A stretch of 40,000 nucleotides of DNA from Geitlerinema sp. PCC 7407 (GTDB taxonomy: Bacteria > Cyanobacteriota > Cyanobacteriia > PCC-7407). Below the pieces are notes generated by a model. The model was given only the letters and a program-made list of their open reading frames with translations. It ran no database searches and had not been told where the DNA came from. Shown here one piece after another: positions 1-25,096 of this stretch; the first letter of the stretch is position 1; every line of letters starts with the position of its first letter. The stretch is taken from positions 3,440,934-3,480,933 of the forward strand of contig NC_019703.1 in the NCBI RefSeq assembly GCF_000317045.1. The letters run 5' to 3'. Made by a program: the position numbers and the translations under genes.

Positions 1-120
1 AACTACTGACTCAATTTTGTCCTGACGATCGCGAAAATTCTTCAGATCTGTTGCATTTTTTCTAAGTGAAACAACATGCGTAGCTAACTGGCTCAACTGT
101 TGACAATCGTCTACGAGCAT
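1..120 (-). CDS. 5' end of an unidentified gene continuing off the left edge (next gene of the helicase/ATPase operon)
   Basis: The minus-strand ATG at 120-118 overlaps the stop (113-111) of the 1032-aa gene by 10 nt. The frame stays open to position 1 (own translation: MLVDDCQQLSQLATHVVSLRKNATDLKNFRDRQDKIESVV...). It is too short for a family call. Confidence 0.3.
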   Translation of the reverse strand, partial: MLVDDCQQLSQLATHVVSLRKNATDLKNFRDRQDKIESVV

Positions 121-3209: not shown

Positions 3210-4138
3210 TGCTGCTCTCCATGGAGATTGTCTCCTAACCAGGTGATATGAGAGATTCGACTATCAGAGCCATCTAGAAATACCCATACTGCTGTATCTG
3301 AAAGCTTGTCTAACTTTATTAGCCCTTCTTCTTCTATACGACGAAGTGAAACGGATGTGACACTTGAGAGATAGTTATGCTCACGTTGTCCAACTTTTTG
3401 CTCAATTTCGTCCCGAAAAGCTCCAGATTCAAAAACAGGACAATACCTGCCTAGATTCAAAATGAATTCATTAACGGGGATTAGCTCAGAATTCTTTTGC
3501 TTGAATACATCCTTGAGAACTTTTCTTAGATAGTTTGTAGGATCTGGAACAATAGCCTTCTTTCCTAAAACTGAATGTCTCCAGCCGAAGTTCAGGAAGC
3601 AGAACCAGTACTCAAACTGCCGAAGACGCTCGTCATTCAATTTGTATGTTTCACCATCACTTAGTCCCGATATCTGGATTGCACCTACTTGTTCACTGAA
3701 AGACTCCACCATACTTTCTGAATCGGTAGGCGCTTCAAATATATCCTGATGAAGATACCAGGCGCAAAGAATGGCTAGATCATGATTCTCATAATTATCT
3801 AAATTAAAGAAAAGTTGGCTGAGAACGGTTGGAAGAAACTCATCACCGAACTGAGGATTCTTGGCTTTAACGGGCAAGTTTGGATGAAGAGCGATATCCT
3901 CATTGTCTGAAATGAATAGCCCTGATTTTATTCCTTCGTTGATTGCAGCGCGAGCCATGGAATATCTATCTTTCTCAGGTTTGTCTTTGACAAAATAATC
4001 TGGAGAAAGAATCCTCTCCAAAGAAGATTTCTTCTCCCTTTGTCCTCTAGTATTTAGCAGGTATCTAAATACACCTCGAATTCTACTTGGTGTAGCTTCC
4101 ACATTCTTCAAAACACTCATAACCCTAATTCTCCACAA
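3206..4138 (-). CDS. Hypothetical protein (DpdG-like by position only)
   Basis: 310-aa ORF with no motif I recognise. It overlaps the upstream helicase gene by 22 nt and the downstream NTPase gene by 4 nt (ATGA), which implies translational coupling in one operon. Confidence 0.55.
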   Translation of the reverse strand: MWRIRVMSVLKNVEATPSRIRGVFRYLLNTRGQREKKSSLERILSPDYFVKDKPEKDRYSMARAAINEGIKSGLFISDNEDIALHPNLPVKAKNPQFGDEFLPTVLSQLFFNLDNYENHDLAILCAWYLHQDIFEAPTDSESMVESFSEQVGAIQISGLSDGETYKLNDERLRQFEYWFCFLNFGWRHSVLGKKAIVPDPTNYLRKVLKDVFKQKNSELIPVNEFILNLGRYCPVFESGAFRDEIEQKVGQREHNYLSSVTSVSLRRIEEEGLIKLDKLSDTAVWVFLDGSDSRISHITWLGDNLHGEQQ

Positions 4139-9600: not shown

Positions 9601-9938
9601 GTTGGGTCATCAATTGGGCGATTACAACGGACATGGATGTCTTGTTCAACGGCGTAGCAGAACTTCCCATCTGGCAAGTCAATTTCGTAGCGGCGATCGT
9701 CGTCATGCCACTTGTAAATCCTTCCAATCAGCCATGACTCTCTCTCCTCAGACCAGAGGTAGCAGCGGGTGTGCCGTTGAAGAATAACTCGTTCCAGTGA
9801 GCTGATCGGAACGGATTGCTGGATTCGCTCCCCTACTGATACAAAATATTCAATCTGAGCATCAGAATAAGAAATATCCTGAAGCCTCCCAGTTCCTAGA
9901 CTATTAAGACGTGAGCGAACTAGAATACCTGGTTGCAT
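6648..9938 (-). CDS. SNF2-family helicase/translocase (DpdE-like)
   Basis: 1096-aa ORF. SNF2 motifs LADEVGLGKTIEAG (I), LVLDEAQHIA (II), LLLSATPALN (III) and HFDLPWSPNRLEQRHGRMNRIGR (V-VI). Preceded by a 136-bp gap after dpdA. Confidence 0.85.
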   Translation of the reverse strand: MQPGILVRSRLNSLGTGRLQDISYSDAQIEYFVSVGERIQQSVPISSLERVILQRHTRCYLWSEERESWLIGRIYKWHDDDRRYEIDLPDGKFCYAVEQDIHVRCNRPIDDPTEVLILRGHETPFFYDRRSNFFRCLIEQRAVSRGMPGLLSASIELYPHQVEVVRRVLEDSIQRYLLADEVGLGKTIEAGVILRQYLLDNPTGRVLVIAPKPLLKQWQQELEAKFYLSEEIDWLTIEDIRSTHIQFQPDFLVLDEAQHIAGMAVSPDSAQRECFEFCRKLAHQAKQVLLLSATPALNHEQAFLAMLHLLDPMTYRLEDLDGFKERVRLRQDIGRVLLSFKEDASSFVLKMTLSKLKNLFNSDERLSLLLNQLETILQALQVDSEEQSRVIRSIRTHISDTYRLHRRMLRNRRESLEDVLLDQSGVIPRVEYDEDERSLIVHEYLDEWRVRALGMKNDPDYQDWQQLRAVFLLLFRASGTELGLLQELISARLSGGVSPTLIQDFGEEAELFLKTPLFPGESNILQTLLDNLQQQPEFGDRIDQLQVVLTTLRTKNGDRPFKAVVFTSFSYTCQKIVAPLKEAFGQEAIATYQVGQSIDEVEANTTQFLESPRCFVLVCDASGEEGHNLQFADWMIHFDLPWSPNRLEQRHGRMNRIGRRQLMNYVVFAGADVGDSLHDAWFQVLKDGFKIFQESIASLQFYVDRKLPDLAEALFESGAYGLKQSIAIVHDEIHREKVSIDEQNALDEIDALEESAAQYFQELEDYDSQHRKLKQAVEGWVYEALQFKREFQDGQDQNSDDIFAYRPSLKGRRETLVPVKDLYSLFSSSFAETGTYNRRKALQQPGVSVYRIGHPLLDALAHFVRWDDRGQAFALWRHEESWPSSEGAEWVGFRFDYVVETNLSKLDEVLQSHGWPQSNRTALIRRTDALFPPSVETLVMTTGMQPVTDPKLLEILQRPYSQHREPTRDYNLAKDRSFVLDEFISQDDWEYFCRGTRSRSEKLLRERQQFRDRCQRYATQAKRKLGDRVEQLRLRLERQAQAHSDSLLAQEYELEKALSQIFVQGILTPAIRLDSVGFYIVSGRLPKLPNGEARPQ

Positions 9939-10074
9939 GATCCTAGGTTTAAGCTGAGTCAGGCTATATAGATGCAGCCAAACTAGTATTCCCTTCCATA
10001 GAAGACATACTCACACCGATCACTATTGCTACAGCCGTTTACCTAGTATGACCAATTTCTCCTGAAGTGGCTAT

Positions 10075-12210
10075 TTAGGGTTGGGCTAGGAGTTGTTTCA
10101 AATTGCCAGAAAATTCTCTTTCCGCCAATTCATCTTCTGCTTGAGCAGTAGGAGTGGTGAGATGCTTTAGCAACGATTGAAACCGTTTGTAAAAGACATA
10201 GGTATTATGAAACCCACGCCTGCGATTGCGATTATTATTTCTAAAAATTACTACTTCAATTCCAACATCCTGGCAAATCGCGCAATCGCAAACTTTCCAG
10301 GGCTTTTCCTCTAAAACTTCCCGGTATAGAGTCTCATGTGTAGCTCGTCGCTTCGCCTGAGCATCTAGATCAACTTTGCCATCTCGTGGCAGTTCAACCA
10401 GTTCATCGTAGGCTAGCACAGCTTCAAGAGTTGCCTCGACTCCAAGTTTATTCCTGTCGAACTCGCGCAATGCTTTGAGAGCATCTTGCTCTAGCTTGTG
10501 AAGCGTTGGCAAATCAGCGACTCCAGCAGCTACTAGCTTTTTAACCCGCAAACCATTATTTGCAACAGGCGGCACTCGGATCGCTGCGTAGCGTTTCCCC
10601 GTCATCGTATGATAATTTGCTGTTACCCCTAACCAAGCCTGCCGTAACGGGCTTGCCGAATCACAGCTCGTCACTCCCAAGTGCCGAAAGGCAGGGATTG
10701 TATCGATTCGAGCAACACCAAATAGGTGCATTCGCACATGGGATTGAAGGCGTGGGTGTATTGCTTCAAGAATGGGCAGAATTTCGGAGTTTTGGGCACG
10801 CGCCAATCCTCCTAGAGCAATATAGTCATATCCCATTTGAATCAATTCTTGTACCGCTGCTGCATAAGATTCAGGATCCCAACCCTGTGCCACGCCGATT
10901 GGAGTAAATTGATAGCCTCGTTCCTGGTGTTTTCCTAGAAACTCTGCTGCATTTTCAAGTGTTAGTTTGTATCGAAGATCTCGAATGCCTGGAACCGCAA
11001 ATGGACCAACAATAAGGTGATCAATACTGACCCCAAAATCAAAACCAAGGCGTTCATAGTAATCTAAAATTTCATCTGTATTGTAAGGAGGAAGATCCTC
11101 TTTGATATAGCTAAATGCACCGCAATCCCCCATGATCTTTCCAGGGAAACGAACAAATTTATGAACCCCTAGTTCTTCGACTCTATTTCTCTTCGTTTGA
11201 CTTTCATCTATGACAGCTTTAGAGACTAAAACCCCATCATAGTTAGGGGATGGAAAGAAGATTTCATGGGCGTAAACGTCATCAGCATAGGAGTCATGCC
11301 GATTAGATCCAAAGGAATCTGTTAAGAAATTGTACTCAGGATCAACCCGATCATCCCATTCAGGAATAAAGTACTGCATACCCAAGTGAACATTCGGGGC
11401 AGACGGTAAATCGGGGATGGGAATGAATTCACCTTTGTTTTTTTTCGTGGTGACTTGCTTAGGCTTGCTGCTTATTACTAATTGAGGTAGACCTAAATCA
11501 AGTTCAAGTTGAGTCGTTCTATCAATAATTTCCTGAAAACGACAGGGATCTTGGTGAATTTGTTCAAATAGATCAGGTTGCTCTGCCGCAACTAAAGCAA
11601 ATTGTTTGAATAAAAAACCCTTTAACCCTACTGAACCAAAACCGTACTTCTTTGCCTCAGCGTTCGTGAGAGGCAAGACAAATGCTTGAGGATCTGATGT
11701 CTTAATTAAGTTAGAGCAACTCCCTGGAGCTAAGAAAATCCAAGTTTGCTCCTCGTAAAGGGTGAGCGGTAATGAGATTGCTCTTAAATACTTTTCACCT
11801 AGTAGAACAAAAATCAAATCATAGTCAGAAATTATTTTTTCAAGTGATTGATGTATCTTTAATCGTTTTGCCCAGTCATCTATCTCATGCCCTTTCATTG
11901 TGTTGAAAGTGACTTCGTAGGGTGCAATTACACGATCTTCAGGAATCAATCCATAACCTGCTGAGATGATAAATACATCAATTTCAGGCTTCTCTAAAGT
12001 CTTCCGTAGAGTTCGCACACCCTCCATCAATTGGGTATGCTGCATCCCCGTATACATTTCTCCTGCCGGAGCCATAAACTCAGAAAGCTGCTTTTCTCTT
12101 TTGCGGAGTCGAGCAGCGTGCGTAAAATCTTCCTGAGTGAGTTGATTCTCTGGCTTAAATCGCTTTTCCCCGGTACACGATGTAATGATTAAGACACGGG
12201 GGTAGCGCAT
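10075..12210 (-). CDS. dpdA: DpdA-like DNA-guanine transglycosylase (TGT-fold) fused to an N-terminal ~235-aa domain of unknown function
   Basis: 711-aa ORF. From about aa 275 it shows TGT-like features: [25 protein letters not shown]. The TGT zinc motif CxCxxC...H is present as CDCAICQ-(22 aa)-H near the C-terminus. The start overlaps the queC stop by 22 nt. The N-terminal part ([16 protein letters not shown]..., [19 protein letters not shown]) is not TGT-like and is joined by a Lys-rich linker ([15 protein letters not shown]). Confidence 0.75.
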
Positions 12211-12911
12211 CGGTTCTCCTGTTCGTACAATTCTCGCCCTACTAACGTTGCCAGATCGGGTCTACCTGCGTCAATCAGGGCACGATCGCGAATCCGGCAA
12301 GAGTCGCACAACCCACAGGGTTCATCCTCGCCTTGATAGCAAGACCAGGTGAGGTGAATCGGAACACCTAGTTGTAACGCACGATGCACGATATCTACTT
12401 TGGAATCCATAACCAGTGGAGCCACAAGCTTAGGGGCATGCCCTTCTAATCCAGTCTTGGAGGAGAGGGTTGCAAGATGCTGGACAGCTTCTAGGTACTC
12501 CGGTCGGCAATCAGGATAGCCAGAATAGTCTACGGCATTGATTCCCAAATAAATTGCTTCGGCTCCTTTGGCTTCAGCCAGGGATAGAGCGATCGCCAAA
12601 AAGACCGTATTCCGCCCCGGCACATAAGTAATGGGAATCACACCAGGCTTCACACCGTCAGTCGGCACATCCACAGCCTGGTCAGTCAAGGCAGAACCGC
12701 CCCACTGCGCCAAATTCACATCCACCACAAAGTGTTCCTTGATCCCCAAATGTTCAGCGACCCGCTTAGCAGCAATGAGTTCGCGATCGTGCCTTTGTCC
12801 GTAATGGAGCGATAGAGCAATCAACTCGTAACCATCAGCGATCGCCTGAGCAGCAGAGGTCGATGAATCCAGACCACCAGACAATAAAACAATAGCTTTG
12901 GGAGCATTCAT
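12189..12911 (-). CDS. queC: 7-cyano-7-deazaguanine (preQ0) synthase QueC
   Basis: 240 aa. N-terminal PP-loop [11 protein letters not shown]-terminal zinc Cys cluster [20 protein letters not shown]. Typical QueC length. Confidence 0.9.
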
Positions 12912-12935
12912 GGTTCACCTCATGGTAAGGGGTCA

Positions 12936-13166
12936 TTAGCTTGGCGATCGCCAGATGGGTTTTACGTCACTTTCAAATTGGTAAAGTTTACGGCAAAGGT
13001 GCCCGATCTCATCACTGCGAGGTTGTCCGCTTTCTCCGAAGGTTTCTTGCTCCATGTCCTCGCTCATTTGGTCATAAGGATCGTCATCCTCGTGGTTGTC
13101 AGCCCAATATTCCAGGGATGCAAGGATGATGGAAAGTTCGCGGGGGGATAGTTCAATTTGAGCCAC
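12936..13166 (-). CDS. Small highly acidic protein, unknown function
   Basis: 76-aa ORF between queE and queC. It has a GTG start preceded by GAGAGGTG 7 nt upstream, and the queE stop lies 14 nt upstream. By my count it has 18 Asp/Glu against 6 Lys/Arg. No family recognised. Confidence 0.5.
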   Translation of the reverse strand: MAQIELSPRELSIILASLEYWADNHEDDDPYDQMSEDMEQETFGESGQPRSDEIGHLCRKLYQFESDVKPIWRSPS

Positions 13167-13180
13167 TAGCTTTCACCTCT

Positions 13181-13819
13181 CTATCGAATGTTGGTGAACT
13201 TATGAGTTTGTAAGCTAATCCGCCATTCGGAATGGCTGAGAACGTACTCGAAGATTAGCGAGTAGCTATCAGGCGTGCCCCATTCCGGTTGGAGCAACTT
13301 AACCGCATGAGTTGGAATTCTGGCACCGTGCTCCTCCGCCCATATCAAATCAGAGCGGTTGGCAACGACAACCTTCAATTCACTGACCTGAGAATAAATA
13401 CTTGCATGAGGAGGTTTAGAGGGCTTAGGAGAGAATGTGACCCAGTCAAAACTGCCACTAAAGGGGTGTGCGCCGGAAGTTTCCAGATGCACTCGCAACC
13501 CTGCGTTTCTCAAACCAGAACTGAGGCAGGAGAGGTCATGCAACAAGGGTTCGCCACCTGTGATCACAACGATCGCCGGATTTGCTGCTTTAGCTTCTGC
13601 AATCAGGTCAGTCGTATGGCGTTGGGGATGGCGATGGGCATTCCACGAATGTTTGGTATCACACCAGGGGCAACCCACGTCGCAGCCTGCCAAGCGAATA
13701 AAGAAAGCATTTGTACCTGTCCACGCTCCCTCACCTTGAACGGAGTGGAAGGTTTCCACCACTGGCAAGACTGCCGAGGCTGTTTTAGCGGTTGAGGTCG
13801 TGGGGATCAGGCTTGTCAC
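13181..13819 (-). CDS. queE: 7-carboxy-7-deazaguanine synthase QueE (radical SAM)
   Basis: 212 aa. It starts ...FHSVQGEG and carries the radical-SAM cluster motif CDVGCPWCDT (CxxxCxxC). Size and context between queD and queC fit QueE. Confidence 0.9.
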   Translation of the reverse strand: MTSLIPTTSTAKTASAVLPVVETFHSVQGEGAWTGTNAFFIRLAGCDVGCPWCDTKHSWNAHRHPQRHTTDLIAEAKAANPAIVVITGGEPLLHDLSCLSSGLRNAGLRVHLETSGAHPFSGSFDWVTFSPKPSKPPHASIYSQVSELKVVVANRSDLIWAEEHGARIPTHAVKLLQPEWGTPDSYSLIFEYVLSHSEWRISLQTHKFTNIR

Positions 13820-13854
13820 AATGTGCTAATTCGTAGATGTCGCAAGGGTTACTC

Positions 13855-14244
13855 CTAGTCGTCTTCGTACTCAGCCCAGGAATTGGGGGTTTCAGACACG
13901 GCGACCTTGAGCTTTACATCTGAGGGCAATTGCTTTTTCGTCTTTTCATGGATGTATTGAGCAATCATCTCAGCAGTCGTTTCATAGCCTTCAGGGAGGA
14001 CTTCGTTCAAAACAGAGTGGTCAAGCCCCCCTTTGAGCAAGTCTTGCTTTGCCCAGCGAAGCGTGCGGAAGTCCGCTACCATAACGGGATGAGGACAGTA
14101 TTCGGAGGTATGAAGCTGGCTAGAAGTTGCTTCAATGCGTACCCGGTAGGTATGCCCGTGCATCCGCCCACAAGGACCGTCATAGTCTCGAATGTAGTGG
14201 GCAGCATCGAAGGTAAATTCAGTCGTCAGTTTCCACTTGGGCAT
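13855..14244 (-). CDS. queD: 6-carboxy-5,6,7,8-tetrahydropterin synthase QueD
   Basis: 129 aa. FDAAH...CGRMHGHTY catalytic Cys/His motif of the PTPS/QueD family. First gene of the que-dpdA block. Confidence 0.9.
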   Translation of the reverse strand: MPKWKLTTEFTFDAAHYIRDYDGPCGRMHGHTYRVRIEATSSQLHTSEYCPHPVMVADFRTLRWAKQDLLKGGLDHSVLNEVLPEGYETTAEMIAQYIHEKTKKQLPSDVKLKVAVSETPNSWAEYEDD

Positions 14245-15927: not shown

Positions 15928-16959
15928 ATGGCTGAAGCTGAGCCAAAATTCTACTTCTACGACAAAACGGCTCTCGAAGCTTCTCCTGTCCCCGCTACTC
16001 CTGTTGATCTCCGATGGCAGCGTGTAGAGGAGTTTTTGCAGAGCCGAGAGTTTGCGCCAAACACTCGGAAGGCTTACGAGCGGGAGTTGCGGCGGTTCGC
16101 TAATTGGACAGAGAAACCTTGGCACGCGATTACTGCTCAAGATGTCGATCGCTTTAAGGCATTTCTCAAAGAGGGGCGATCGCAAGACACAACGACTGAC
16201 AATCCAGGAGCAGGGAAGCCTTTAAAGGCGGCTTCAAGTAAACGTGCTCTGGCGGCACTGCAAAGTTTTTTCAAATGGTTGAGCAGTTGGGATTACATCA
16301 GTAAGAATCCGACCCTTGTAATTGAGAAGCCCAAACTGGAGCCGTTGTTCTCTAAAGAACTGAAAGCTTCTGAAGTCCGAGCTTTACAGGAAGCTCTGGA
16401 AAACCGGGGAGAGACAGAAGCGAGAGACACAGCACTCTTGGCGGTGCTGGAACACGGACTCAGGGCTTCTGAGATTGCGGCACTTAACATTGAAGATTAT
16501 GACGGAGTGAGACTGCTTATTCGACGCGCAAAAGCAGACAGTGTGGGCGCTGTTCCTCTGCTTCAGCCTGCTCGAAGATCCCTGGATGCTTATTTAGGAT
16601 GGCGTTTACGGCAGGGATTACCAGTTACTCCCAATTCTCCGCTATTTCTCTCAACTTCTAATAACAGCAAAGGGCAGCGACTGAGCTATTGGGGAATTTA
16701 CAAAATCATGAAGGATCTGGCACAGACAGCAGGGGTTGAGGACTTTCATCCTCATCGTTTACGGCATACGTTTGGAACAAAGTTAGTGCTGAAAAAGATG
16801 GACAGCACATTGGCACGACAATTAATGCGGCACAAATCTGAGGCAAGCTTTGAGCGATACACTCGACGGGCACTAGAGATTGAGGCAGAGAACCAGTTTT
16901 ACGAGGTCTTTGGTGAAGAACATCCTGACGGGGCGATCCATCATGGATTAAACGAGTAG
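15928..16959 (+). CDS. Tyrosine site-specific recombinase/integrase (XerC/D-like)
   Basis: The ORF runs from a TTG at 15883, but the likely start is the ATG at 15928 (MAEAEPKF...). N-terminal SAM-like core-binding region. Catalytic residues are present in GLRASEIAAL (Arg), HPHRLRHTFGT (His-x-x-Arg) and HKSEASFERYTR (His...Tyr). Confidence 0.85.
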   Translation: MAEAEPKFYFYDKTALEASPVPATPVDLRWQRVEEFLQSREFAPNTRKAYERELRRFANWTEKPWHAITAQDVDRFKAFLKEGRSQDTTTDNPGAGKPLKAASSKRALAALQSFFKWLSSWDYISKNPTLVIEKPKLEPLFSKELKASEVRALQEALENRGETEARDTALLAVLEHGLRASEIAALNIEDYDGVRLLIRRAKADSVGAVPLLQPARRSLDAYLGWRLRQGLPVTPNSPLFLSTSNNSKGQRLSYWGIYKIMKDLAQTAGVEDFHPHRLRHTFGTKLVLKKMDSTLARQLMRHKSEASFERYTRRALEIEAENQFYEVFGEEHPDGAIHHGLNE

Positions 16960-16989
16960 CTCAACGCCAATTCAGCATAGCAGTGACCT

Positions 16990-18055
16990 TTAGACGAGAA
17001 ATGCGTTCCCTACAAAAATCTCGCGATCGCCCTCCTGAATAAACACATAGACAACAGAAGAATCGTTGGGATCAAACCGAACATTAACCAGGTTTCCGAT
17101 GTAGTTTTCTAGCTTGTCCTCTCCCCTATAATGTTGATGGTTGAGTACCAGCAGTCGATGTTTAAAGAGCGTACGAGTACGAACTGGTAGTCGATACAAA
17201 TCAGAGGTTTCGTTCAGCCCTATAGATTGCTTCCGAGAACTTGGCTCCCATCGTTGAGATTGCCCTTGCTCAGTCGTCTTCAGACTTGATTCCTTTTCCC
17301 AGTAATCTGTGATAAAACGCTGAAGCTGTTGGTTCAATTCCTCTGGAGTGAAGGTTCTTAAATTTTGAGGGGATGATTCAGATTGGTTCTGGCGTTTTTT
17401 GCTTAAATATCCAGGTAGTTTTGAAAGCAATTTCCAATCAACATTCTTAAGATTAAACCTGTCATCATCAAAAAATCTCATTTTTAGCTCCATAATGCCA
17501 TTCCTGACTTAACTGAACTCACTTCCAGTAAAGGTGAATCAAAAGTAGACTCACTATCAGTTGTTATTAACTGTGTAGATGTTCCATACCTACTAGAGGG
17601 TATGCATCAATTCTTGTGAAAGCACTGCACCGTATATCATCAGAACTTGAATGCTATACCTGGTTGCATTGCAAAGCTCACAATACATATTGAAAAGAGA
17701 TGAATGGCTACGGCTAACAACTGGCGGCGAAATTACCGCTACTTCCTTGAAATTAGGCGATCAATGCAATTGCTCTAATCAACCAGTTATCATCATCTTA
17801 CAAAGTCCTTTTAGACATAATGCTCATGTCTAAAACTTACTTATTCTTGAAGGACAAATAGTAAGCAATGATTTTCCGAGAATAGACATCAGTAACGGTG
17901 GTTAACCAAGGACGTTCTGGATTCCCCTGCTTGTTGATAATATGAATGTCGATGCCAGAGCCATCAATCTCGACGATTTGGCTATCGTGATTTTTCTCAC
18001 CTTCGTTGCTGTTGTTTGTGTTCATTGTGAAATCAAATGAGTGTGTTGTGTACAA
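16990..18055 (-). pseudogene. Decayed copy of a TnsB-core-only paralogue (two ORF fragments: 18055-17837 and 17493-16990)
   Basis: The 72-aa fragment (..SQIVEIDGSGIDIHIINKQGNPERPWLTTVTDVYSRKIIAYYLSF) aligns with the first DDE aspartate region of TnsB. The 167-aa fragment (..YRGEDKLENYIGNLVNVRFDPNDSSVVYVFIQEGDREIFVGNAFLV) aligns with the TnsB beta-barrel region. The ~340 bp between them, which should encode the second D and the E, has no open frame. Confidence 0.55.
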
Positions 18056-18097
18056 CTGGTTTATCCATAATTAGTAGAACTGTTATGGATAAACCAG
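18056..18097. repeat. Perfect 15-bp inverted repeat with a 12-nt loop
   Basis: CTGGTTTATCCATAA (18056-18070) and TTATGGATAAACCAG (18083-18097) are exact reverse complements. The repeat lies between the intact and decayed TnsB-core genes. No U-run follows on either strand, so it is not a canonical terminator. Confidence 0.7.
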
Positions 18098-18116
18098 ATT
18101 TCATTGCTAAGCTTAG

Positions 18117-19031
18117 TTAAGACATTGGAACTGCGAAGGCGTGTCCTAGAAATACCTCTTGACCATTGTTCTGCTGATAGACACTAATAGTTGACATGTC
18201 AGTAGGATTGTGGCGGACAACAACAAGCTCCCCTACACGAGTTAGTAGTTGCTCACTACGATACACAAGATTGCGGAAGGTCAGTTGCCCAAACTTTTGG
18301 ACACGACGTTGAGACGGAGGAATAAACAAATCATCTAAAGTTTGTTCAGAAGGACCAGCGGGTTGATTGATTAAGCCCTCCTTCCAACGCTGCGATCGAG
18401 TTTGATTTGGTGCCTTCGGGTAAGGTCGTTGATTGTAGTTATCTACGATGTAATGCCCTACAATCTGCTCCAGTTGTTGCAACTCCAAATACACTTCGCG
18501 GTTAGCTGGAGGTTGTTGAGGAATCTCATTGAATCCAGGTAACAATGCAAAGCAGTCGTGATTGGCTGTCAGAAAGAAACGCTCTACTGAGCCGCCCTCA
18601 GGAGGAGATACACGCTGGTGGAACTGGCATCCTAAATGATGAGTGATTTGATCAAGAGCAGAGGGATCAAGATCACTCGCCATATCAATAACGATGCCTT
18701 CAGGAATACCATGAATCTCCCAATCACAACAAGTTTCATACTGCACCTGAGGTTTCTTTGGTAGCATCGCATGGCGCAACACTGTGAGAATTGAAGCATC
18801 AGAGCTTACATTGAGTTGATAGCCCGCAATGCACCCTGAGTACAAGTCACCAACTACATCGAGAAAGGGATTACAGACTTGGTCGTTAGCAACCTTGACA
18901 GGAACACTTAGTTTCGAACGATTGATTACCCACAATTGATTGCTATGGGTAACACACACATTGGTTTCATTGGTCATGAATAGTTTTGTCTCCATTGAAT
19001 ATAAAGTCCAGTAGCATTTTGCTGATTGCAT
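18117..19031 (-). CDS. TnsB-derived DDE-core protein lacking the N-terminal DNA-binding and C-terminal TnsC-binding regions; first catalytic Asp replaced by Asn
   Basis: 304-aa ORF (likely start ATG 18977, MTNETNV, with GGAG upstream). It aligns by eye with TnsB at 21598-23685: WVINRS against WQVDST (D to N), IVIDMASD against LFTDGGSE (D kept), GGSVERFFLTAN against GGGIERIFKTLN (E kept), and VVVRHNPTDMSTISVY against VTLRYDPRDVTTMFAY. It ends right after ...EVFLGHAFAVPMS. Confidence 0.65.
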   Translation of the reverse strand: MQSAKCYWTLYSMETKLFMTNETNVCVTHSNQLWVINRSKLSVPVKVANDQVCNPFLDVVGDLYSGCIAGYQLNVSSDASILTVLRHAMLPKKPQVQYETCCDWEIHGIPEGIVIDMASDLDPSALDQITHHLGCQFHQRVSPPEGGSVERFFLTANHDCFALLPGFNEIPQQPPANREVYLELQQLEQIVGHYIVDNYNQRPYPKAPNQTRSQRWKEGLINQPAGPSEQTLDDLFIPPSQRRVQKFGQLTFRNLVYRSEQLLTRVGELVVVRHNPTDMSTISVYQQNNGQEVFLGHAFAVPMS

Positions 19032-19159
19032 GATAGTACATTTGAACTATAATGCACATTTTTTTAGGAAAAAGTGAGTTGTCAACTGGCAAAAGTTTTA
19101 CCGATGAGGCAACAAAACTTTGCCCTACTCATACAAGTGATAAAAGACACAACCATTGA

Positions 19160-19687
19160 CTAATATGCCTTCTGGTACTTAACCATTCGCTTGTAAGGCA
19201 TCCCACACTTCTCACAAAAATCATTTGTCAAAATAGACTGTATAGAAAACTTTTTTCGGCACCCTGTTCCAGGACATTTTGAAAGCAGTCGAAGCTGATG
19301 CTGATCGCACCCTTCCGTTGATCGAAGCTGCCATTTCATCTGATGGCATGGATGTTTGAGGTAACAAGCTGCACAAAAGCGAATTGTGTTTTGAACAACT
19401 TCTTCACTTTCAGGAGGTAACATTTCAGCTAACCTCTTGGGACTGATTCCAATTAAAGAACCTACAGCTTTCAGTTCTTTTCGATTTGGGTAAGGGTTGT
19501 ATTGGAACCTTTCCCATCTTGCAAGTACTGGTCCAATACCTGCCTCCTGAGTTAGCCAACTTGGTGTCGAGAGCCTGTTTCCTTTCCCATATCGAAATCG
19601 ATGAAAGTAACTGGGCAAACTCTCACCCTCTAAAGGTTCAACGTATTCTAGTTGAAGTTGAGGTTGTTCTAATTTGGGTTTAGGCAT
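19160..19687 (-). CDS. tniQ: Short TniQ-family targeting protein (type V-K CAST-like)
   Basis: 175 aa. LEGESLPSYFHRFR, LARWERFQYNPYP, RLAEMLPP, IRFCAACY, PCHQMKWQ and CDQHQLRLLSKCPG..C closely parallel the ~167-aa ShCAST TniQ as I remember it (EGESLSHFLGRFRR, ARWERFHFNP, LAQMLPP, IRLCGACY, CDRHQLK). It sits directly after tnsC. Confidence 0.85.
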   Translation of the reverse strand: MPKPKLEQPQLQLEYVEPLEGESLPSYFHRFRYGKGNRLSTPSWLTQEAGIGPVLARWERFQYNPYPNRKELKAVGSLIGISPKRLAEMLPPESEEVVQNTIRFCAACYLKHPCHQMKWQLRSTEGCDQHQLRLLSKCPGTGCRKKFSIQSILTNDFCEKCGMPYKRMVKYQKAY

Positions 19688-19735: not shown

Positions 19736-20665
19736 CTATTTTCTTTTCTTACCTGCTTGTTTATGATTTGCTATTGCCAGCTTAAGTATGTCCTTAGTAA
19801 TTTTGGGTGAACCTTGAATTACAGCCTCAATCGCAGCACTCCTCAGAATGGCATCAAGTGCGCGCAGACTATAGTTGGTAGACTGAATCAGAAGTTTAAT
19901 CAATTCTTTTGATGTCAATCCTGATGGTTCTGGAAGTTTCAATACCTGTTTTTCCCAAATTGCTACCGTTTTTGCAAACTCTGTAGCGCTCATTTTGTCA
20001 AAATGGTAGCGAAATTCAAATCTGCCATCCACTTGTTCATCTCTAGAGATGAGGGTAGTCAATCTATTAGTACCTACGAGAATAATGGACAGTTCGAGAT
20101 CCTCGGTGTTGTAGATGTAGCTAAGTTCAGCTAAAGTTTCATACTTAAAGCGATTTGCCTCATCTAAAATCAGTGTTTCGGTGCGGCGTAATTCAAGTGT
20201 TTCGAGCAATCGTTCTCGTAAGTCGTCTGTTGAACCTTGCAATGCGCGATTGCCCATAACCTGCAGCAATCCTTTATGACATTGCTTTGGACCACAATTA
20301 GGAGTTACTTCCCAATAGACAACGGGCATGTGTCGTTGTTTACCGGATTGAGGTTGTACTGGAACACGAAGCTTATATGCCATGCAACCCATTGTTTTGC
20401 CAACTCCAGAATTACCTTCGACAATTCCAGATTCCCCCGCCAAACGTCGAGTATCTAGCCAATCATGGAGATTGGTGACGGAGGTAAGTGGCACATAAAA
20501 TTTCTTACGCAACCGCTTGATTTCAGCCTGTTTCTCTGGCGACAGTTGCTTGACTGATCCTAATTTTTCTGCGACTTTCACAGCGTTTGTAGCTGTCATT
20601 CCTGCATCTGTTTCTGCATCTGTTTCCGCATCTGTAGCTGGTACTTCAGCGTTTTTGGTTGTCAT
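19736..20665 (-). CDS. tnsC: TnsC/TniB-like AAA+ transposition ATPase
   Basis: 309-aa ORF. Walker A GNSGVGKTMG and Walker B ETLILDEANRF. An alternative start at ATG 20599 (MTATNAVK) would give 287 aa and would exclude the TDAETDAETDAG repeat. Confidence 0.8.
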   Translation of the reverse strand: MTTKNAEVPATDAETDAETDAGMTATNAVKVAEKLGSVKQLSPEKQAEIKRLRKKFYVPLTSVTNLHDWLDTRRLAGESGIVEGNSGVGKTMGCMAYKLRVPVQPQSGKQRHMPVVYWEVTPNCGPKQCHKGLLQVMGNRALQGSTDDLRERLLETLELRRTETLILDEANRFKYETLAELSYIYNTEDLELSIILVGTNRLTTLISRDEQVDGRFEFRYHFDKMSATEFAKTVAIWEKQVLKLPEPSGLTSKELIKLLIQSTNYSLRALDAILRSAAIEAVIQGSPKITKDILKLAIANHKQAGKKRK

Positions 20666-21597
20666 AAAATTTCTGGGTAGGTTGGCAAAAGGTTCGTGTA
20701 AAACTGGGCAGTTAGGCAGGTAGTATCTAAAGCTTGAAAAATAATGGTACTCAGGTACTATTGTTTGTGGTAAAGAATATTCAATGTGTAAAAAAACTTA
20801 ATAAAGCTAGTTAGGAGAATAAGCGAAGGTTCGGTATCCTAGTGCTTGCAAGGTTTTGAAGAGGTTTTCCTGCACCATCTTTCCACTTAACAAGAGGCAG
20901 TATCTTGGCGGATTGACAAATCTTTCGCCGATCCCATTCGCCCCACAACTAAAGACGCGCTAATCGCTGAAGTCCTCCTAAAGAGGACTGGATCAAAGTG
21001 TCATTGAGGACACATTTTGAAGATTGGTGGAGATTGAGCAGATGATGCGGAGATAAGGAAAAGGGGGGACGCAGAGAGCAAGAACGTTGCCTGAAATCCC
21101 CATGTCTCCGTGTCTCGGTGTCTGTGTCGAACCCACTTCCCAACTGCCGAATGCATTTGATCAGAATTCAGTCCGTTTTACTAACTTCTATTAGTCCTGA
21201 ACTGGAAATCAGCAGAGGATGAACGAAGCGACTGAATTTCAGCAGTTTTGCCTATCAATCAGTCCCTTGCACTCAATTACAAATATAAAATGCTGCACAT
21301 CGAGAAGTAGAATGACGATCGCTGGTATTCGTGTTGTTGAACGACTCGTCAGTAGGCAAAGTTTAATGTGATTGGCGATCGCTGGAGATTTCAATAATTG
21401 TCTCTGCTTAATCCAACTTCCAATCCAAATTGCTCTTGGGCACCTGAAGTTACCTTACATTCCTCAACAGGTTACTGGAGACGCAGAACATTCCAAGCAT
21501 TAAATAGAAATTTTGATTCCAGAGGCGGATAAGAGACTATTTCCTCCATTCCAGAAACTCTGAATGCAAGAATGGTCGAAATTTAAGGACAAAGCTC

Positions 21598-23685
21598 CTA
21601 GAAATCCTGTATCATCTCATCCCAATCATAAACTTCTACCTCAGGTATTTCAATATCACCCTCAGATACTACTGTCTCCTTATCTTCTGCACTACCAGAA
21701 CTCCTAGTATTCAACTCTGAACTTTCCTCCTCCATTCCTTCTGAGCTACTTGCTTCTGAACCCGAACTATCTCCAGAGGTACTAGGGTCAGAAGTTTCAC
21801 TACCATCATCACTAGGTAGTGAAACTTCTGAAGTTGGTAGTTCTTCATCTTGAAGAATACTGTCTGCTGGTACTTCATGGAAATCATCATGTTCAGATCT
21901 CCTACGCTGCTTCCTGCTTAATTTTTGGATTTCTGCAACACGAGAATCACGATAGTCAATTTCTCTTAAAACAGACAAGACAGTTTGATTCGTAACAGCT
22001 TTTCCGTCCTCCCTCAACCCTGCGTTAATTACTTCAAGTTCATCTAACGAAAGACGCTCACACTCTAAATCACGAGGATGTATGCGAGCTATAAATTTAC
22101 CTAACCTGTCCTCTGACTCATAGCTGTAAGCAAACATTGTAGTAACATCTCTGGGATCATAACGGAGAGTCACGTATTCACCAGCATAGGAACTTAAGCA
22201 ATCACCACGGTATATAAGGTTCTTGAAGTAAACATCTCCATATTTCTGAACCCTACGATGAGCTTCTTTCATTAAGCAAATATCTAGTTCTCTCTCATCG
22301 ACAAATTCTAGAATGTCTTCTTGTGTGGCTTGCCAACGTTGATAGCGTGTTTGAGTTTTTACCTTTGGATGTTGCCTCCGGTTGTAATTATCAACGAGAT
22401 ACTTAACTAGAAGCATTTCAAGGTCGGTAAGGGTTAGGCAAGCCTCCTTTTCCGCATCTTTAGGGCGGTCTTTAACATTGGAGCCTTTATACCCTGGTAT
22501 TTGAGAGAAAAACTCAGTGTTTAGAGTTTTAAAGATCCGTTCAATTCCGCCTCCATCTGAGGGGCGGAGACGAAGGTAATGAACAAAACCCAGTTTCTCT
22601 GAAACCTGTGAAATATGTTCACAGTCGTGCTCTGAACCTCCATCCGTAAAAAGAACACAAGGTTTTCCCTGTATCCCCCATTCATTTTCGAGGTTGTAAT
22701 CTGGGCCATAGTTCTTAGGCAGAATTGCGTGGCGTAGTGCAAGAGCGACTTCTTTAGACCCAGGACCCAAGAATCCAAGATGGAACCCAACCACACATCC
22801 AGAGTAGGTATCCAAGATGATTGTCAACACGGGACACCCTATTTCAACACCATCCTTATCTACTAATAAAACATCTGCTCTCGTGCTATCAACTTGCCAA
22901 ACATCTTGGCTCCATCTCACAGGAATACTTTGTCCACAACGAGTTTTGACATGATGTTGATGTGGAGACTGTCCTGCATGTCTTACCGTTTTATTCTCCT
23001 GATTAATCAAAGGCTCTAAGATGCGGTAGACAGCCATCTTGCTTGGGTATTGCCCATCTTGAAGACCAAATTCTAATCTGGCTAATTTCTGCACCCTTAC
23101 AAAGACTTGGTATTGATTCATTCTCTGCGAGCCTTTGTTTCGATTGATGTAAGTGTCGATGATGTAACTCGACCATTTAAAGTCCTGATATTTTTCCTCC
23201 AAACGAAACTTTTCAGGAATTGGGTATAGTTTATCGATTCGAGGAGTACCCTTATCAGCTCTTGAGTTAGAGGCGAAGGCTTCTGAGTTTTTCTCTAAAT
23301 ATTTGTTGATTTCCCTTTGAATCGATCGGTCACTTAAACCAAGCTGCTTAGCAGCTTCTTTTTTCCTTTGTTTACGGGTATCCTCATCCCTAGCAGCGCA
23401 TATAGCTCGGATCAATTTGAGCCTGAGCTTCATATCTTTTTCTTTGGGTTCCTTCTTTTTCTTGGAGGAATAAGTGGCTTTAGTGGCATTGTCTGCTTCG
23501 TCAGAATCATCCAGGTCCTTTTCAAGCAGTTCATCCTGGTTCAGTTCTGAAGAATTTTGCGTTACATCTGAATCTGCTTCCAACGATGTATTATTAGCCA
23601 CAATATTTCTCTCAAGTCTGATTAATACACTTTTTCTACGTTGCAACGGATAGACGAGAAATGTGGAGCACATATCTCTGTCCAC
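21598..23685 (-). CDS. tnsB: TnsB, Mu/Tn7-type DDE transposase (type V-K CAST-like)
   Basis: 695-aa ORF (the true start may be internal). HTH-like region LGLSDRSIQREINKY and SRADKGTPRI. DDE triad in VWQVDSTRADVLLVD, VLFTDGGSEH and GGGIERIFKTLNTE. YDPRD beta-barrel motif. An acidic/Ser-rich tail ends EVYDWDEMIQDF (compare ShCAST ...EVWDYEQLREEYGF from memory). Confidence 0.88.
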   Translation of the reverse strand: MDRDMCSTFLVYPLQRRKSVLIRLERNIVANNTSLEADSDVTQNSSELNQDELLEKDLDDSDEADNATKATYSSKKKKEPKEKDMKLRLKLIRAICAARDEDTRKQRKKEAAKQLGLSDRSIQREINKYLEKNSEAFASNSRADKGTPRIDKLYPIPEKFRLEEKYQDFKWSSYIIDTYINRNKGSQRMNQYQVFVRVQKLARLEFGLQDGQYPSKMAVYRILEPLINQENKTVRHAGQSPHQHHVKTRCGQSIPVRWSQDVWQVDSTRADVLLVDKDGVEIGCPVLTIILDTYSGCVVGFHLGFLGPGSKEVALALRHAILPKNYGPDYNLENEWGIQGKPCVLFTDGGSEHDCEHISQVSEKLGFVHYLRLRPSDGGGIERIFKTLNTEFFSQIPGYKGSNVKDRPKDAEKEACLTLTDLEMLLVKYLVDNYNRRQHPKVKTQTRYQRWQATQEDILEFVDERELDICLMKEAHRRVQKYGDVYFKNLIYRGDCLSSYAGEYVTLRYDPRDVTTMFAYSYESEDRLGKFIARIHPRDLECERLSLDELEVINAGLREDGKAVTNQTVLSVLREIDYRDSRVAEIQKLSRKQRRRSEHDDFHEVPADSILQDEELPTSEVSLPSDDGSETSDPSTSGDSSGSEASSSEGMEEESSELNTRSSGSAEDKETVVSEGDIEIPEVEVYDWDEMIQDF

Positions 23686-23722
23686 ATAAGTTCGCTTGTA
23701 CTACATAGTAAAATCCGTTTCG

Positions 23723-23922
23723 GAAAAAGACAACTATTTCGTGAAATATGGGTAGCCCCTGAAAAAACGTGTTTCTGGAAAACGACAACTAATGTGTGAC
23801 ACGTATACAGATTTGCCACAAGTAAGCTCGAAAAGCCTAAAACCGTTTACCTGTAAGAATTGCAGAAATTTTCATCGCGACATTATTGTGTGAAAAAGCG
23901 ACAAATAATTCGTACTTGTACA
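23723..23922. repeat. Transposon end with four direct putative TnsB-binding repeats and an 8-bp TTGTACAA terminus region
   Basis: Plus-strand repeats: GGAAAAAGACAACTATTTCGTGAAAT (core 23729-23743), GGAAAACGACAACTAATGTGTGACAC (core 23784-23798), GCGACATTATTGTGTGAAAAA (core 23879-23893) and GAAAAAGCGACAAATAATTCGTACTTGTACA (core 23900-15, terminus 23917-23922). On the minus strand the end reads TGTACAAGTACGAATTATTTGTCGC, close to the ShCAST left end TGTACAGTGACAAATTATCTGTCG as I recall it. Confidence 0.7.
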
Positions 23923-24192: not shown

Positions 24193-24459
24193 ATGTCAGA
24201 ACAATTGCCGGAGAATTCGATCATTTCAGTGGAACGACAGGGTTCGTCGCCACCCAAACTATGGGAAAGCGAAGCCTTGCTAAAAGCGATTGAGTCTGGC
24301 CTGATTAGCCGCGTTGACTCTCCCCGGGCCAAAGAACTGGCAAGGGTCGGTATGCCGTGCAAGATACTTGCACCAAGGCAGGAATGGAGAACGGGGTATA
24401 TCCGGGTGAGGGTTGAGTTTGTGCCGGGTGAGCTACCTCAAGAGCAAACCGAGCAGTAA
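24193..24459 (+). CDS. KGK-domain-like small protein, paralogue 1
   Basis: 88 aa, MSEQLPENS...GMPCKILAPRQEWRTGYIRVRVEFVPGELPQEQTEQ. The C-terminal pattern G.PC..L.PG..W..G....V.F.P.E matches my recollection of the cyanobacterial KGK domain (PF08872). First of three tandem paralogues. Confidence 0.7.
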   Translation: MSEQLPENSIISVERQGSSPPKLWESEALLKAIESGLISRVDSPRAKELARVGMPCKILAPRQEWRTGYIRVRVEFVPGELPQEQTEQ

Positions 24460-24501
24460 TAGACTGCAACGTCAAAAAGTTGTCATTTTTGGTCTTTTTC
24501 C

Positions 24502-24774
24502 ATGTCAGAAGAATTGCCAGTAGATGCAGTAATCGCAGTGAACGATGATGTTCCAATGCACGAGCGGTTCTTTACCAACGAGTGGTTTCTAGAAAAAATC
24601 CGTAGTAGTTGTGATTACAGAATTTCGTCAGCCAGCCCCATAGGCGAGCGTCTTCTTGCGGAAGGAATACCATGCAAAGTGCTTGAACCAGGCCAATTTT
24701 GGGAAACAGGGTATATCCAGGTACGGGTTGAGTTTGTGCCGGATGAGTTACCTCAGGCATCGAGCGAACAGTAA
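24502..24774 (+). CDS. KGK-domain-like small protein, paralogue 2
   Basis: 90 aa, MSEELPVDAVIAVN...GIPCKVLEPGQFWETGYIQVRVEFVPDELPQ. The start lies 309 bp after the paralogue 1 start and has a similar upstream sequence (tttttccATGTCAGAAGAATTGCC). Confidence 0.7.
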   Translation: MSEELPVDAVIAVNDDVPMHERFFTNEWFLEKIRSSCDYRISSASPIGERLLAEGIPCKVLEPGQFWETGYIQVRVEFVPDELPQASSEQ

Positions 24775-24814
24775 CGGACTGAAAGTCGAAAAGTAGATAT
24801 TTTGAGCTTTTTCA

Positions 24815-25096
24815 ATGTCAGAACACTTTCCATTAGATGCAGTAATCGCGGTCAACTCCGAGGTTGGCATGTACACTAAGCTTTTTAGATCTGACTGGCT
24901 AATATCTCAAATTCAAAAAGGTGCAAATGCTGAGCTAGGTGGCTCAGCTGGCAATTTTTTGTCAGATGATGGATTGCCCTGCGAGGTTCTCCGGCCTGGA
25001 ATGCATTGGCGGTCAGGAAAACTTCACATCAAGATCAAGTTTGTACCTGGTGAGCTGCCACAAGAGCAAAGCGATCAAGCTAGCGATCAGATTTAA
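24815..25096 (+). CDS. KGK-domain-like small protein, paralogue 3
   Basis: 93 aa, MSEHFPLDAVIAVN...GLPCEVLRPGMHWRSGKLHIKIKFVPGELPQEQSDQ. The start lies 313 bp after the paralogue 2 start. Confidence 0.7.
   Translation: MSEHFPLDAVIAVNSEVGMYTKLFRSDWLISQIQKGANAELGGSAGNFLSDDGLPCEVLRPGMHWRSGKLHIKIKFVPGELPQEQSDQASDQI

Follow-up and report, generated by a model that had tools for sequence, protein, structure and literature searches.

A core-only TnsB paralogue kept open by selection behind tniQ in a Tn7-like element of Geitlerinema sp. PCC 7407, and its possible role as a non-catalytic modulator of transpososome assembly

Introduction

CRISPR-associated transposons (CASTs) of type V-K and their relatives are being engineered to insert DNA in a programmable way, and both their natural regulation and the roles of their non-catalytic TnsB protomers are poorly understood. 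Of the four TnsB protomers in the ShCAST strand-transfer complex, numbers 1 and 2 bind the transposon ends and perform the chemistry, while numbers 3 and 4 have a non-catalytic, architectural part, with N-terminal domains that are not seen and a DDE domain that is pulled off the DNA (bioRxiv 10.1101/2022.08.05.502904). In these two protomers the 5' flaps are gripped by the middle (beta-barrel) domain, and other protomers have the oligomerisation helix inserted as a wedge between their DDE domain and NTD2 (bioRxiv 10.1101/2022.08.05.502904). Here we describe two truncated TnsB-like genes, copy 1 and copy 2, that follow tniQ in a Tn7-like element of the cyanobacterium Geitlerinema sp. PCC 7407. 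The DNA analysed is a stretch of 40,000 nucleotides (contig NC_019703.1, positions 3,440,934 to 3,480,933), referred to below as the window and numbered from its first letter.

Additional or inactive TnsB proteins have been met before. Rybarski et al. (2021, bioRxiv 10.1101/2021.08.16.456562) mentioned in passing that in type V CASTs a catalytic-domain TnsB fragment can stand beside the full-length protein, and raised the possibility of a heteromeric TnsB1:TnsB2 complex; their work contains no family definition, no position rule and no analysis of selection or of catalytic residues. In the telomeric Tn7-like transposons of Streptomyces, two tnsB genes stand in tandem and TnsB1 is inactive (Hsieh and co-workers, bioRxiv 10.1101/2024.11.13.623437, Fig. 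S9). TnsP, encoded by a small open reading frame (ORF) downstream of tnsBCQ, is required for transposition in the Cas12k-less PAST elements (bioRxiv 10.1101/2024.11.13.623437). Non-catalytic or truncated transposase paralogues in Tn7-like elements are thus already known. In the literature that we searched, neither a core-only TnsB family behind tniQ nor the erosion of its catalytic triad is described, and the same holds for the PCC 7407 element; such a family would therefore be a further form of something already known, and it opens no new category.

We find that copy 1 is a real gene kept open by selection. The explanation that we favour, tentatively, is that its product is a TnsB-derived, non-catalytic modulator of transpososome assembly.

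Results

Copy 1 encodes the catalytic domain and beta-barrel of TnsB

The gene order on the minus strand of the window is tnsB, tnsC, tniQ, copy 1, an inverted repeat and copy 2. We observed that copy 1 (18117..18977, minus strand) encodes a protein of 286 amino acids (aa), consisting of an RNase-H-like catalytic domain and a beta-barrel, in which the triad reads N-D-E. A first-pass annotation of this DNA had given the protein 304 aa. This is the length from the first ATG of the ORF (18117-19031), but the upstream extension is not conserved, and the conserved start is the ATG of MTNETNV at 18977, the one also used in the NCBI annotation, where copy 1 matches a protein of the PCC 7407 genome with 100% identity. 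It is preceded by a GGAG ribosome-binding site (18990-18993, minus strand) that is conserved in the relatives of copy 1.

The copy 1 protein aligned with residues 253-520 of the resident full-length TnsB (34% identity, E=6e-49) and with residues 191-474 of ShCAST TnsB (E=2e-53). In the ShCAST alignment, D205 is replaced by Asn (WVINRS) whereas D287 and E321 are retained, exactly as the first-pass annotation had read the triad. The C-terminus matched the Mu-transpos_C beta-barrel in Pfam (PF09299, E=8.5e-15), and the stop codon at 18117 falls about 10 residues past this domain. All the features that the annotation had described were confirmed at the positions it gave.

The protein thus has neither the N-terminal sequence-specific DNA-binding domains nor the C-terminal oligomerisation helix and TnsC-binding tail, and as these parts are missing it should be unable to bind transposon ends or TnsC. 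Copy 1 is separated by about 130 bp from the tniQ stop codon and by 60 bp from copy 2, so that there is no space for the missing domains, and no remnant of the TnsB N- or C-terminus was found near copy 1 using tblastn.

An AlphaFold model of copy 1 (built on 56 sequences) had a mean pLDDT (predicted local distance difference test score) of 87. Its best structural matches were ShCAST TnsB chains, with a template-modelling (TM) score of 0.82 for 7SVW_B, and it aligned over about 280 columns with the 296-304-residue chains of the ShCAST strand-transfer complex. The ordered part of protomers 3 and 4 in that complex (PDB 7SVW, 8AA5, 8EA3) is the DDE domain plus the middle domain, as in copy 1. The MuA core (PDB 1BCO/1BCM), which ranked 14-15 among the structural matches, is the same unit of catalytic domain and beta-barrel and is stable as a fragment; it is a laboratory fragment of an active enzyme, whereas copy 1 is a separately encoded natural protein.

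We also considered copy 1 as a duplicate of the resident tnsB. This was ruled out by the 34% identity and by the absence of such a grouping in any bootstrap of the tree described below; the distances of copy 1 to the resident TnsB, to ShCAST TnsB and to the TnsB of a related locus (L003) are about equal.

Copy 1 is maintained as a coding gene under weak constraint

We estimated the ratio of nonsynonymous to synonymous substitution rates (dN/dS) of copy 1 by the Nei-Gojobori method, with bootstrap bounds, for 15 distinct pairs. Since transition bias lowers the neutral expectation, neutral change was simulated, and this gave an expected ratio of about 0.65-0.70. The ratios for copy 1 ranged from 0.29 to 0.57 over the 15 pairs, with all bootstrap upper bounds below 1, and in 12 of the pairs (0.29-0.45) they were significantly below the simulated neutral value. 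Off-frame controls gave about 1.0-1.3.

The reading frame itself gave a second line of evidence. The first 218 codons are free of stops in six sequences from five loci, over a tree of 0.57 substitutions per site, an outcome that was never reached in 3000 neutral simulations on this tree. The frame has stayed open although the divergence reaches a dS of about 0.8. Each of the four indels preserves the frame, its length being a multiple of 3, and changes are most numerous at the third codon position, then the first, then the second (855/634/501). The first-pass annotation had regarded copy 1 as a gene and not as random debris; the 12 pairs below neutral and the ORF open in all six sequences bear this out.

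The dS of copy 1 matched that of the adjacent integrase gene (0.146 against 0.161, and 0.237 against 0.243), so the lower identity of copy 1 reflects relaxed constraint and not a different history. We conclude that copy 1 is maintained as a coding gene under weak constraint.

The module containing copy 1 stands behind unrelated backbones

Five relatives of copy 1, with 59-88% identity, were found: in Pantanalinema rosaneae CENA516 and on contigs from metagenomes. Each of the five follows a tniQ, and in all of them the same inverted repeat and then copy 2 lie downstream. Wherever the contig is long enough, copy 2 is followed by the recombinase and the Que/Dpd genes seen in the window.

The genes upstream of this module differ. 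The window and the loci L004/L006 share one backbone (type A, with one tniQ type); L003, L001 and L007 have a different set (type B), in which the L003 TnsB is only 41% identical to that of the window; and L008 has a V-K-CAST-like tnsC and tniQ (type C). Between the window and L003, the tnsB-tnsC half has diverged far more than the part that starts near the end of tniQ. Types A and B become similar in DNA sequence some 125 bp before copy 1 begins, at a TTGACA-16 nt-AAAAAT that resembles a promoter (19058..19085, minus strand; a candidate by consensus match). The module is therefore part of the cargo side and has become linked to three or more backbones. A hairpin, GGCAAAGTTTT...AAAACTTTTGCC on the coding strand, can be read from the sequence in the gap between tniQ and copy 1 (19088..19124, minus strand) and is common to the type A relatives. 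Because the module sits behind three unrelated tnsB/tnsC/tniQ sets, neither copy appears to derive from the resident tnsB.

In L008 (1055-2056) we observed a layered arrangement: the V-K-CAST-like tniQ, a C-terminal fragment of a tyrosine recombinase on the opposite strand (1591-1812), a type A tniQ remnant and copy 1. The remnant is the last ~65 bp (the 3' end) of the type A gene. L003 has an additional TnsB fragment in the same element (3523-3762): an ORF of 79 aa that lies upstream of the full-length tnsB and closes with the TnsB first-Asp motif SSEVWQLDHTAMDVLLV.

Arrangements of this kind raise the alternative that the core-only genes are relics. They would be stubs of the tnsB of earlier elements, left when a new tnsB-tnsC-tniQ set replaced the left part, either through recombination or because a second element inserted in tandem at the same site and a deletion followed, and they would be decaying slowly with no present role. 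The backbone layering seen directly in L008, the same module behind three unrelated backbones and the extra TnsB fragment upstream of the L003 tnsB all fit this alternative, as does the state of the copy 1 family (the catalytic Asp lost in copy 1, the beta-barrel lost three times among its relatives, some pairs near neutral). Against it, relics should have collected stops and frameshifts, yet the open frames and in-frame indels described above, the significantly low dN/dS of most pairs and the conserved ribosome-binding site do not fit this. We regard the proposal that these genes are relics as possible but on balance doubtful, and return to it below.

The triads of the six copy 1 family members read N-D-E, D-D-E, E-N-E, E-D-E, E-N-E and D-D-E.

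Copy 2 is probably an older, mostly degraded paralogue

Copy 2 lies downstream of copy 1 on the same strand in three parts. The N part (17837..18025, minus strand) has 62 codons from the ATG at 18025, within an ORF of 17837-18055; it covers the first strands of the catalytic fold and carries VEIDGS, with the first Asp, and PWLTTVTDVYSR. The middle (17494..17836, minus strand) is degenerate and frame-broken both in the window and in L003. The C part (16990..17493, minus strand) is an ORF of 167 aa that spans the last part of the catalytic domain together with the beta-barrel (Mu-transpos_C, E=4e-8), with 30% identity to copy 1. Thus the Asp of VEIDGS is kept, as first noted, but the middle is still present in decayed form and not simply lost.

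In every relative copy 2 stops after 61-65 codons, and the stop codons differ (TAA, TAG or TGA). In L004 and L007 the middle falls within an ORF of 236 aa, which is in frame with the N part and begins 3 codons past this shared stop. Counterparts of the N-terminal stub lie at 1113-1310 in L004, 1634-1831 in L007 and 3011-3196 in L008. Changes in the stub at codon positions 1/2/3 numbered 137/78/210 and its dN/dS was 0.14-0.27 (p <= 0.05 against neutral), a coding-like pattern despite the shared stop, while the C part was indistinguishable from neutral in the single informative pair.

Copy 2 has 20-23% identity to any full-length TnsB and is the most diverged TnsB-like sequence that we examined. 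The proposal that copy 2 is closer to ShCAST TnsB than the resident TnsB is therefore holds for the motif comparison made at the time (PWLTTVIDTYSR) but not overall. Similarly, the two copies had been taken for a real, duplicated family; the copy 1 family is indeed conserved and domain-exact, and is not debris, but at ~30% identity the two copies do not represent a recent tandem duplication. Copy 2 is probably an older, far more diverged paralogue and mostly a relic. That it is broken in all relatives is a further point for the view that the TnsB cores as a whole are remnants.

Core-only TnsB genes follow tniQ in other cyanobacterial lineages

We took 79 V-K-like TnsB loci from GTDB genomes. 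Two of them, both from Nostoc (L019 and L067), had a second TnsB-core gene directly after tniQ. The L019 protein has 229 aa and retains D-D-E. A search with this protein yielded many proteins of 224-233 aa limited to the catalytic domain, which were also present in an earlier exhaustive search; about 20 of them begin 4-20 residues before SNxxW and end in ...DLDI at the domain boundary. The genomic context was gathered for four further lineages. In all, core-only genes of 225-233 aa lie 40-180 bp past tniQ in the Nostoc loci L019 and L067, the Microcoleus loci L094/95 and the loci L096-98 from metagenomes. In Microcoleus sp. FACHB-53 (L094), tnsB-tnsC-tniQ is followed after 40 bp by a 225-aa gene, and in a metagenome lineage the core-only gene stands behind a decayed tniQ. 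The related core-only genes expected by the first-pass annotation thus exist, and in the same position. Among the first ORFs after tniQ in 58 loci, core-only TnsB was the most frequent family; excluding two loci that had been found through the family itself, its frequency was 3 of 56.

Like these genes, copy 1 is a separate same-strand gene directly after tniQ and starts shortly before SNxxW. It differs in length, since it keeps the beta-barrel and has 286 aa in place of the 224-233 aa and ...DLDI end of the group. Judged by sequence and position, copy 1 belongs to an as yet unnamed group of core-only TnsB paralogues in TnsA-less cyanobacterial Tn7-like transposons akin to V-K CASTs. The Rybarski fragment differs from the window gene, which lies after tniQ without a cas12k, has an eroded triad and forms one of two copies flanking an invariant inverted repeat.

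At least one triad residue is lost in 12 of the 20 core-only proteins, compared with 2 of 36 longer TnsBs; the remaining 8 keep D-D-E. G288, G289 and K290 (the GGK after the second Asp) are mostly lost as well, and K290 touches target DNA in ShCAST (bioRxiv 10.1101/2022.08.05.502904). In the clade of P0227, P0235 and P0211 the second Asp is absent in all three proteins, and the ORFs still have 224-225 aa. The dN/dS of the core-only genes of L094 and L096 was 0.35. Given the N-D-E triad of copy 1 and the erosion of the triad and DGGK loop in most members, copy 1 is predicted not to be an enzyme.

These residues also bear on a second alternative, in which a core-only DDE protein is a second-strand nuclease that cuts the 5' ends as TnsA of Tn7 does and so converts replicative into cut-and-paste transposition. 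The elements lack TnsA and D-D-E is kept in the 8 proteins mentioned, as this would require, but the window copy is N-D-E, most members have lost a triad residue, the GGK loop is gone in nearly all, and no DNA-binding domain is present to position the protein at the ends. We consider such a nuclease very improbable.

In a neighbour-joining (NJ) tree with 200 bootstraps, the core-only proteins grouped with their own resident TnsB in none, and all full-length TnsBs were separated from core-only proteins in 89.5%. Two proteins, P0039 and P0023, arose separately, inside the full-length clade. When the Nostoc loci L019 and L067 were compared, dS was saturated for tnsB and tnsC, 0.20 for tniQ and 0.056 for the core-only gene. 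Such a turnover of tnsB and tnsC ahead of a nearly unchanged core-only gene is what would be expected of relics, and so is the patchy distribution of the genes. On the other side, their domain-exact boundaries are the same in many lineages sharing less than 50% identity, and clades without the triad retain full-length ORFs; neither is expected of stubs in decay.

The slot behind tniQ in elements with and without Cas12k

The first-pass annotation had placed the two copies in the slot where V-K CASTs carry cas12k. TnsP and Cas12k do occupy the same slot past tnsB-tnsC-tniQ, in the same clade of TnsA-less elements, and no Cas12k-like sequence was found anywhere in the window. The comparison is positional only: one core-only homologue lies upstream of cas12k, and several cas12k genes lie some 5 kb from tniQ. 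In L010, L015, L056 and L075 the cas12k match was ~5-6 kb downstream of tniQ and not adjacent to it. A cas12k match within the fetched flank was seen in 9 of the 54 loci having more than 3 kb of downstream sequence.

The shared slot raises a third alternative, that the core-only protein is a target-selection partner of TniQ, in place of Cas12k, TnsP or the TnsF of Tn6022, binding a DNA feature and recruiting TniQ-TnsC. Its position directly after tniQ would suit this role, and so would the lack of cas12k in the window and within ~8 kb downstream of tniQ in L019, L067 and L094. But the adjoining tniQ genes are scattered among those of cas12k-bearing elements and form no clade of their own, unlike those of PAST; the proteins have no recognisable DNA-binding domain and have lost the target-DNA-contacting K290 and the GG loop; one homologue adjoins cas12k; and the module travels with different tniQ types. 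A partnership with TniQ is, in our view, improbable. The three proteins are also different in kind: TnsP is a small DNA-encircling protein without homologues of known function, Cas12k an RNA-guided pseudonuclease, and the core-only protein a homologue of TnsB. Set against the published description of PAST, the window has a TnsB homologue behind tniQ, in place of an orphan small protein, and its recombinase is XerC/D-like with 343 aa. Assignment of this recombinase as a protelomerase, and of the element as a PAST with TnsP, was unsupported.

Two further observations concern the neighbourhood of TnsB-like genes. Downstream of the core-only gene of L094 (8850-9111) we saw three GTCTAAC-n-GTTAGAC palindromes spaced by 153 and 80 bp. 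A group of degenerate TnsB-like genes was found at L089 597-4260 and L090 2013-10367 (P0066, 318 aa; P0157, 504 aa); each is followed by a protein of 824-863 aa without a Pfam match, and there is no tnsC or tniQ there. In L090 the gene is preceded by an integrase 43% identical to that of the window and by a 745-aa helix-turn-helix protein.

An invariant inverted repeat lies between the copies

The first-pass annotation had pointed out a perfect inverted repeat between the two copies, and we confirmed it at 18056..18097, with 15-bp arms (18056-18070 and 18083-18097) around a 12-nt spacer. In each arm the outer 14 bp do not vary among the five relatives in which both arms are present, including L008, where the flanks have only ~70-75% identity and dS is ~0.8. 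The few changes are confined to the innermost arm position and the spacer. In Pantanalinema an insertion sequence (IS) element has inserted into one arm. As RNA, the repeat had a folding energy of -20.8 kcal/mol (z = -3), with no U tract. The arms are invariant rather than covarying, which points to sequence-specific recognition.

An XerC/D-like tyrosine recombinase gene (15928..16959, plus strand; 343 aa) is convergent with copy 2, belongs to the conserved module and lies 1.1 kb from the repeat. It is strongly constrained, its dN/dS of 0.07-0.09 indicating strong purifying selection. The inner ends of the arms, CATAA/TTATG, resemble those of dif, and together with the nearby Xer-like recombinase they make a recombination or operator site possible. 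No second copy of the repeat was found in the window; since it is unique there, we rejected the idea that it is one member of a flanking pair of att sites. Scanning metagenomes for the repeat brought up no contig besides that of L004, which was known before, and no similar palindrome was seen in L090 or beside the core-only genes of other lineages.

From these data a fourth alternative can be drawn, namely a site-specific recombination module in which the recombinase acts on the repeat (to resolve the cointegrates produced by TnsA-less elements, or in cargo exchange between elements) and the TnsB cores are accessories or passengers. The intact and constrained recombinase and arms that stay invariant between diverged flanks agree with it, and so do the 43%-identical integrase near the degenerate TnsB-like gene of L090 and the rise in identity right beside the repeat between the window and L003 (~1.4 kb at ~100%, 16700-18099, within a background of 91-97%). 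Yet the 12-nt non-palindromic spacer is long for an Xer-type core site, the repeat has no second copy in the window and nothing like it in L090 or the other core-only lineages, the identity breakpoint is ~20-60 bp off the repeat and not inside it, and nothing ties the TnsB-core proteins themselves to recombination. As an account of the cores it seems to us quite improbable.

The element is a TnsA-less Tn7-like transposon with a Dpd cargo

The operon of the element consists of tnsB, tnsC and a small tniQ, without tnsA, as in the V-K clade. The resident tnsB (21598..23685, minus strand) encodes 695 aa with an intact D-D-E, falls in a V-K-related clade and scores 434 bits against ShCAST TnsB. The tnsC gene (19736..20665, minus strand) encodes a TniB/AAA protein of 309 aa, and tniQ (19160..19687, minus strand) one of 175 aa; both products are 42-44% identical to their counterparts in a Nostoc V-K-like element. 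The region between tnsC and tnsB (20666-21597) comprises 930 bp with no ORF above 64 aa, while in L019 and L094 this gap is 4-10 bp. No CRISPR-like repeat array, Rfam match or tRNA gene was found across the window, and the element lacks the set of cas12k, tracrRNA (trans-activating CRISPR RNA) and CRISPR array that characterises a V-K CAST.

The left end (23722..23922, minus strand) has TGTACA as its terminus (23917-23922). It also contains three repeats that resemble a TnsB site, at 23722, 23777 and 23893, each GAAAAnnGACAAnTAnTT-like. Inverted copies of these repeats were found neither between tniQ and copy 1 nor below 19160. For this reason the element probably extends past the start of the window, and both copies are placed at the head of its cargo side. 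The same result ruled out the possibility that the module is a target site next to a resident, cargo-less mini-transposon ending after tniQ. In L003 a search for end repeats yielded nothing usable.

As its cargo, the element carries past the recombinase a Dpd system for 7-deazaguanine DNA modification and restriction. On the minus strand (111-14244) we recognised DpdH, DpdG, DpdF, DpdE, a fusion of DpdC (YaaA-like) and DpdA, QueC, QueE and QueD; DpdB was not recognised, and the cluster runs past the window start. Just outside the left end, before purM, are three tandem paralogous ORFs of 88-93 aa (24193-25096, plus strand; MSEQLPENS..., MSEELPVDA..., MSEHFPLDA...).

Discussion

How might a protein reduced to the TnsB core act? 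Under the explanation that we tentatively favour, in which copy 1 modulates transpososome assembly, the core-only protein would contact full-length TnsB while the transpososome is being assembled. It retains the surfaces that are involved in the contacts among the ShCAST protomers. The free core could take the position of an architectural protomer without supplying the oligomerisation helix; alternatively, it could soak up the oligomerisation helix of full-length TnsB. Either way transposition would be tuned, and most likely dampened, the partner and the direction of the effect being inferred.

Several observations weigh against this explanation. Copy 1 lacks the very helix that gives the architectural protomers their role, and the equivalent of the docking residue R367 is mostly His in its family. 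Constraint on copy 1 is weak: when the window copy was compared with the three forms whose beta-barrel is deleted, dN/dS was 0.49-0.57 and did not differ significantly from neutral (p = 0.11-0.24). In those three family members (P0003-P0005) a shared in-frame deletion of 168 bp has removed the beta-barrel, so that the proteins end at the boundary between the catalytic domain and the beta-barrel, and in L008 a nonsense codon cuts the beta-barrel off. The occurrence of the module behind three unrelated backbones speaks against tight co-adaptation with any one TnsB. Core-only genes are present in only ~5% of V-K-like loci in GTDB representative genomes, and their carriers are scattered over the TniQ tree with no co-divergence with TniQ. 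No clade of the NJ tree is more diverged than that of copy 1 (distance 1.42), and at such a distance long-branch attraction is possible. Finally, in L093 (8001-10921) the core-only P0039 (229 aa, A-D-E) stands directly upstream of a cas12k (E=5e-130 to ShCas12k), with no tnsB, tnsC or tniQ within 8 kb; the gene, on a contig found in 18 samples, looks like debris.

The L093 case is also a point for the proposal that the core-only genes are relics, and together with the weak constraint, the patchiness, the lack of co-divergence with tniQ and the swapped backbones it is the reason why this proposal stays serious.

Core-only TnsBs might go beyond modulation and be a dedicated, long-lived, non-catalytic component of V-K-type elements, a brake or scaffold that binds TnsB or TnsC-TniQ. 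We advance this with considerable doubt. With equal reserve, such a brake or scaffold may set the frequency of transposition, the type of product or the competition between co-resident elements, and it would be exchanged together with the cargo side.

The known systems resemble copy 1 in part. Protomers 3 and 4 of ShCAST supply the oligomerisation helix; copy 1 is without it, and its relatives of 224-233 aa are also without the beta-barrel. The Streptomyces TnsB1 is likewise a second TnsB in its element that has lost active-site residues and is taken as a non-catalytic subunit, but it is actinobacterial, its gene stands in a tandem of tnsB genes and no truncation has been described, whereas here we have a cyanobacterial catalytic core, with or without the beta-barrel, after tniQ. 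In Tn5, the inhibitor Inh arises from an internal start within the transposase gene itself and retains the dimerisation region. Copy 1 is similar in that it derives from a transposase, has no end-binding N-terminus and could enter into unproductive complexes; the inhibitor-like or structural role that the first-pass annotation had in mind is plausible. It differs in being a separate, old gene (only distantly related to the resident TnsB) and in lacking the oligomerisation helix.

Even if the core-only genes are relics, these loci record the repeated replacement of tnsB-tnsC-tniQ ahead of a stable, Dpd-carrying cargo half, and this bears on module exchange among Tn7-like elements. If instead our favoured explanation, that copy 1 is a non-catalytic modulator, is true, the core-only TnsB would join Cas12k and TnsP as the third kind of gene in the slot behind tniQ, and a recurrent non-catalytic TnsB core would offer a ready-made probe or modulator of transpososome assembly.

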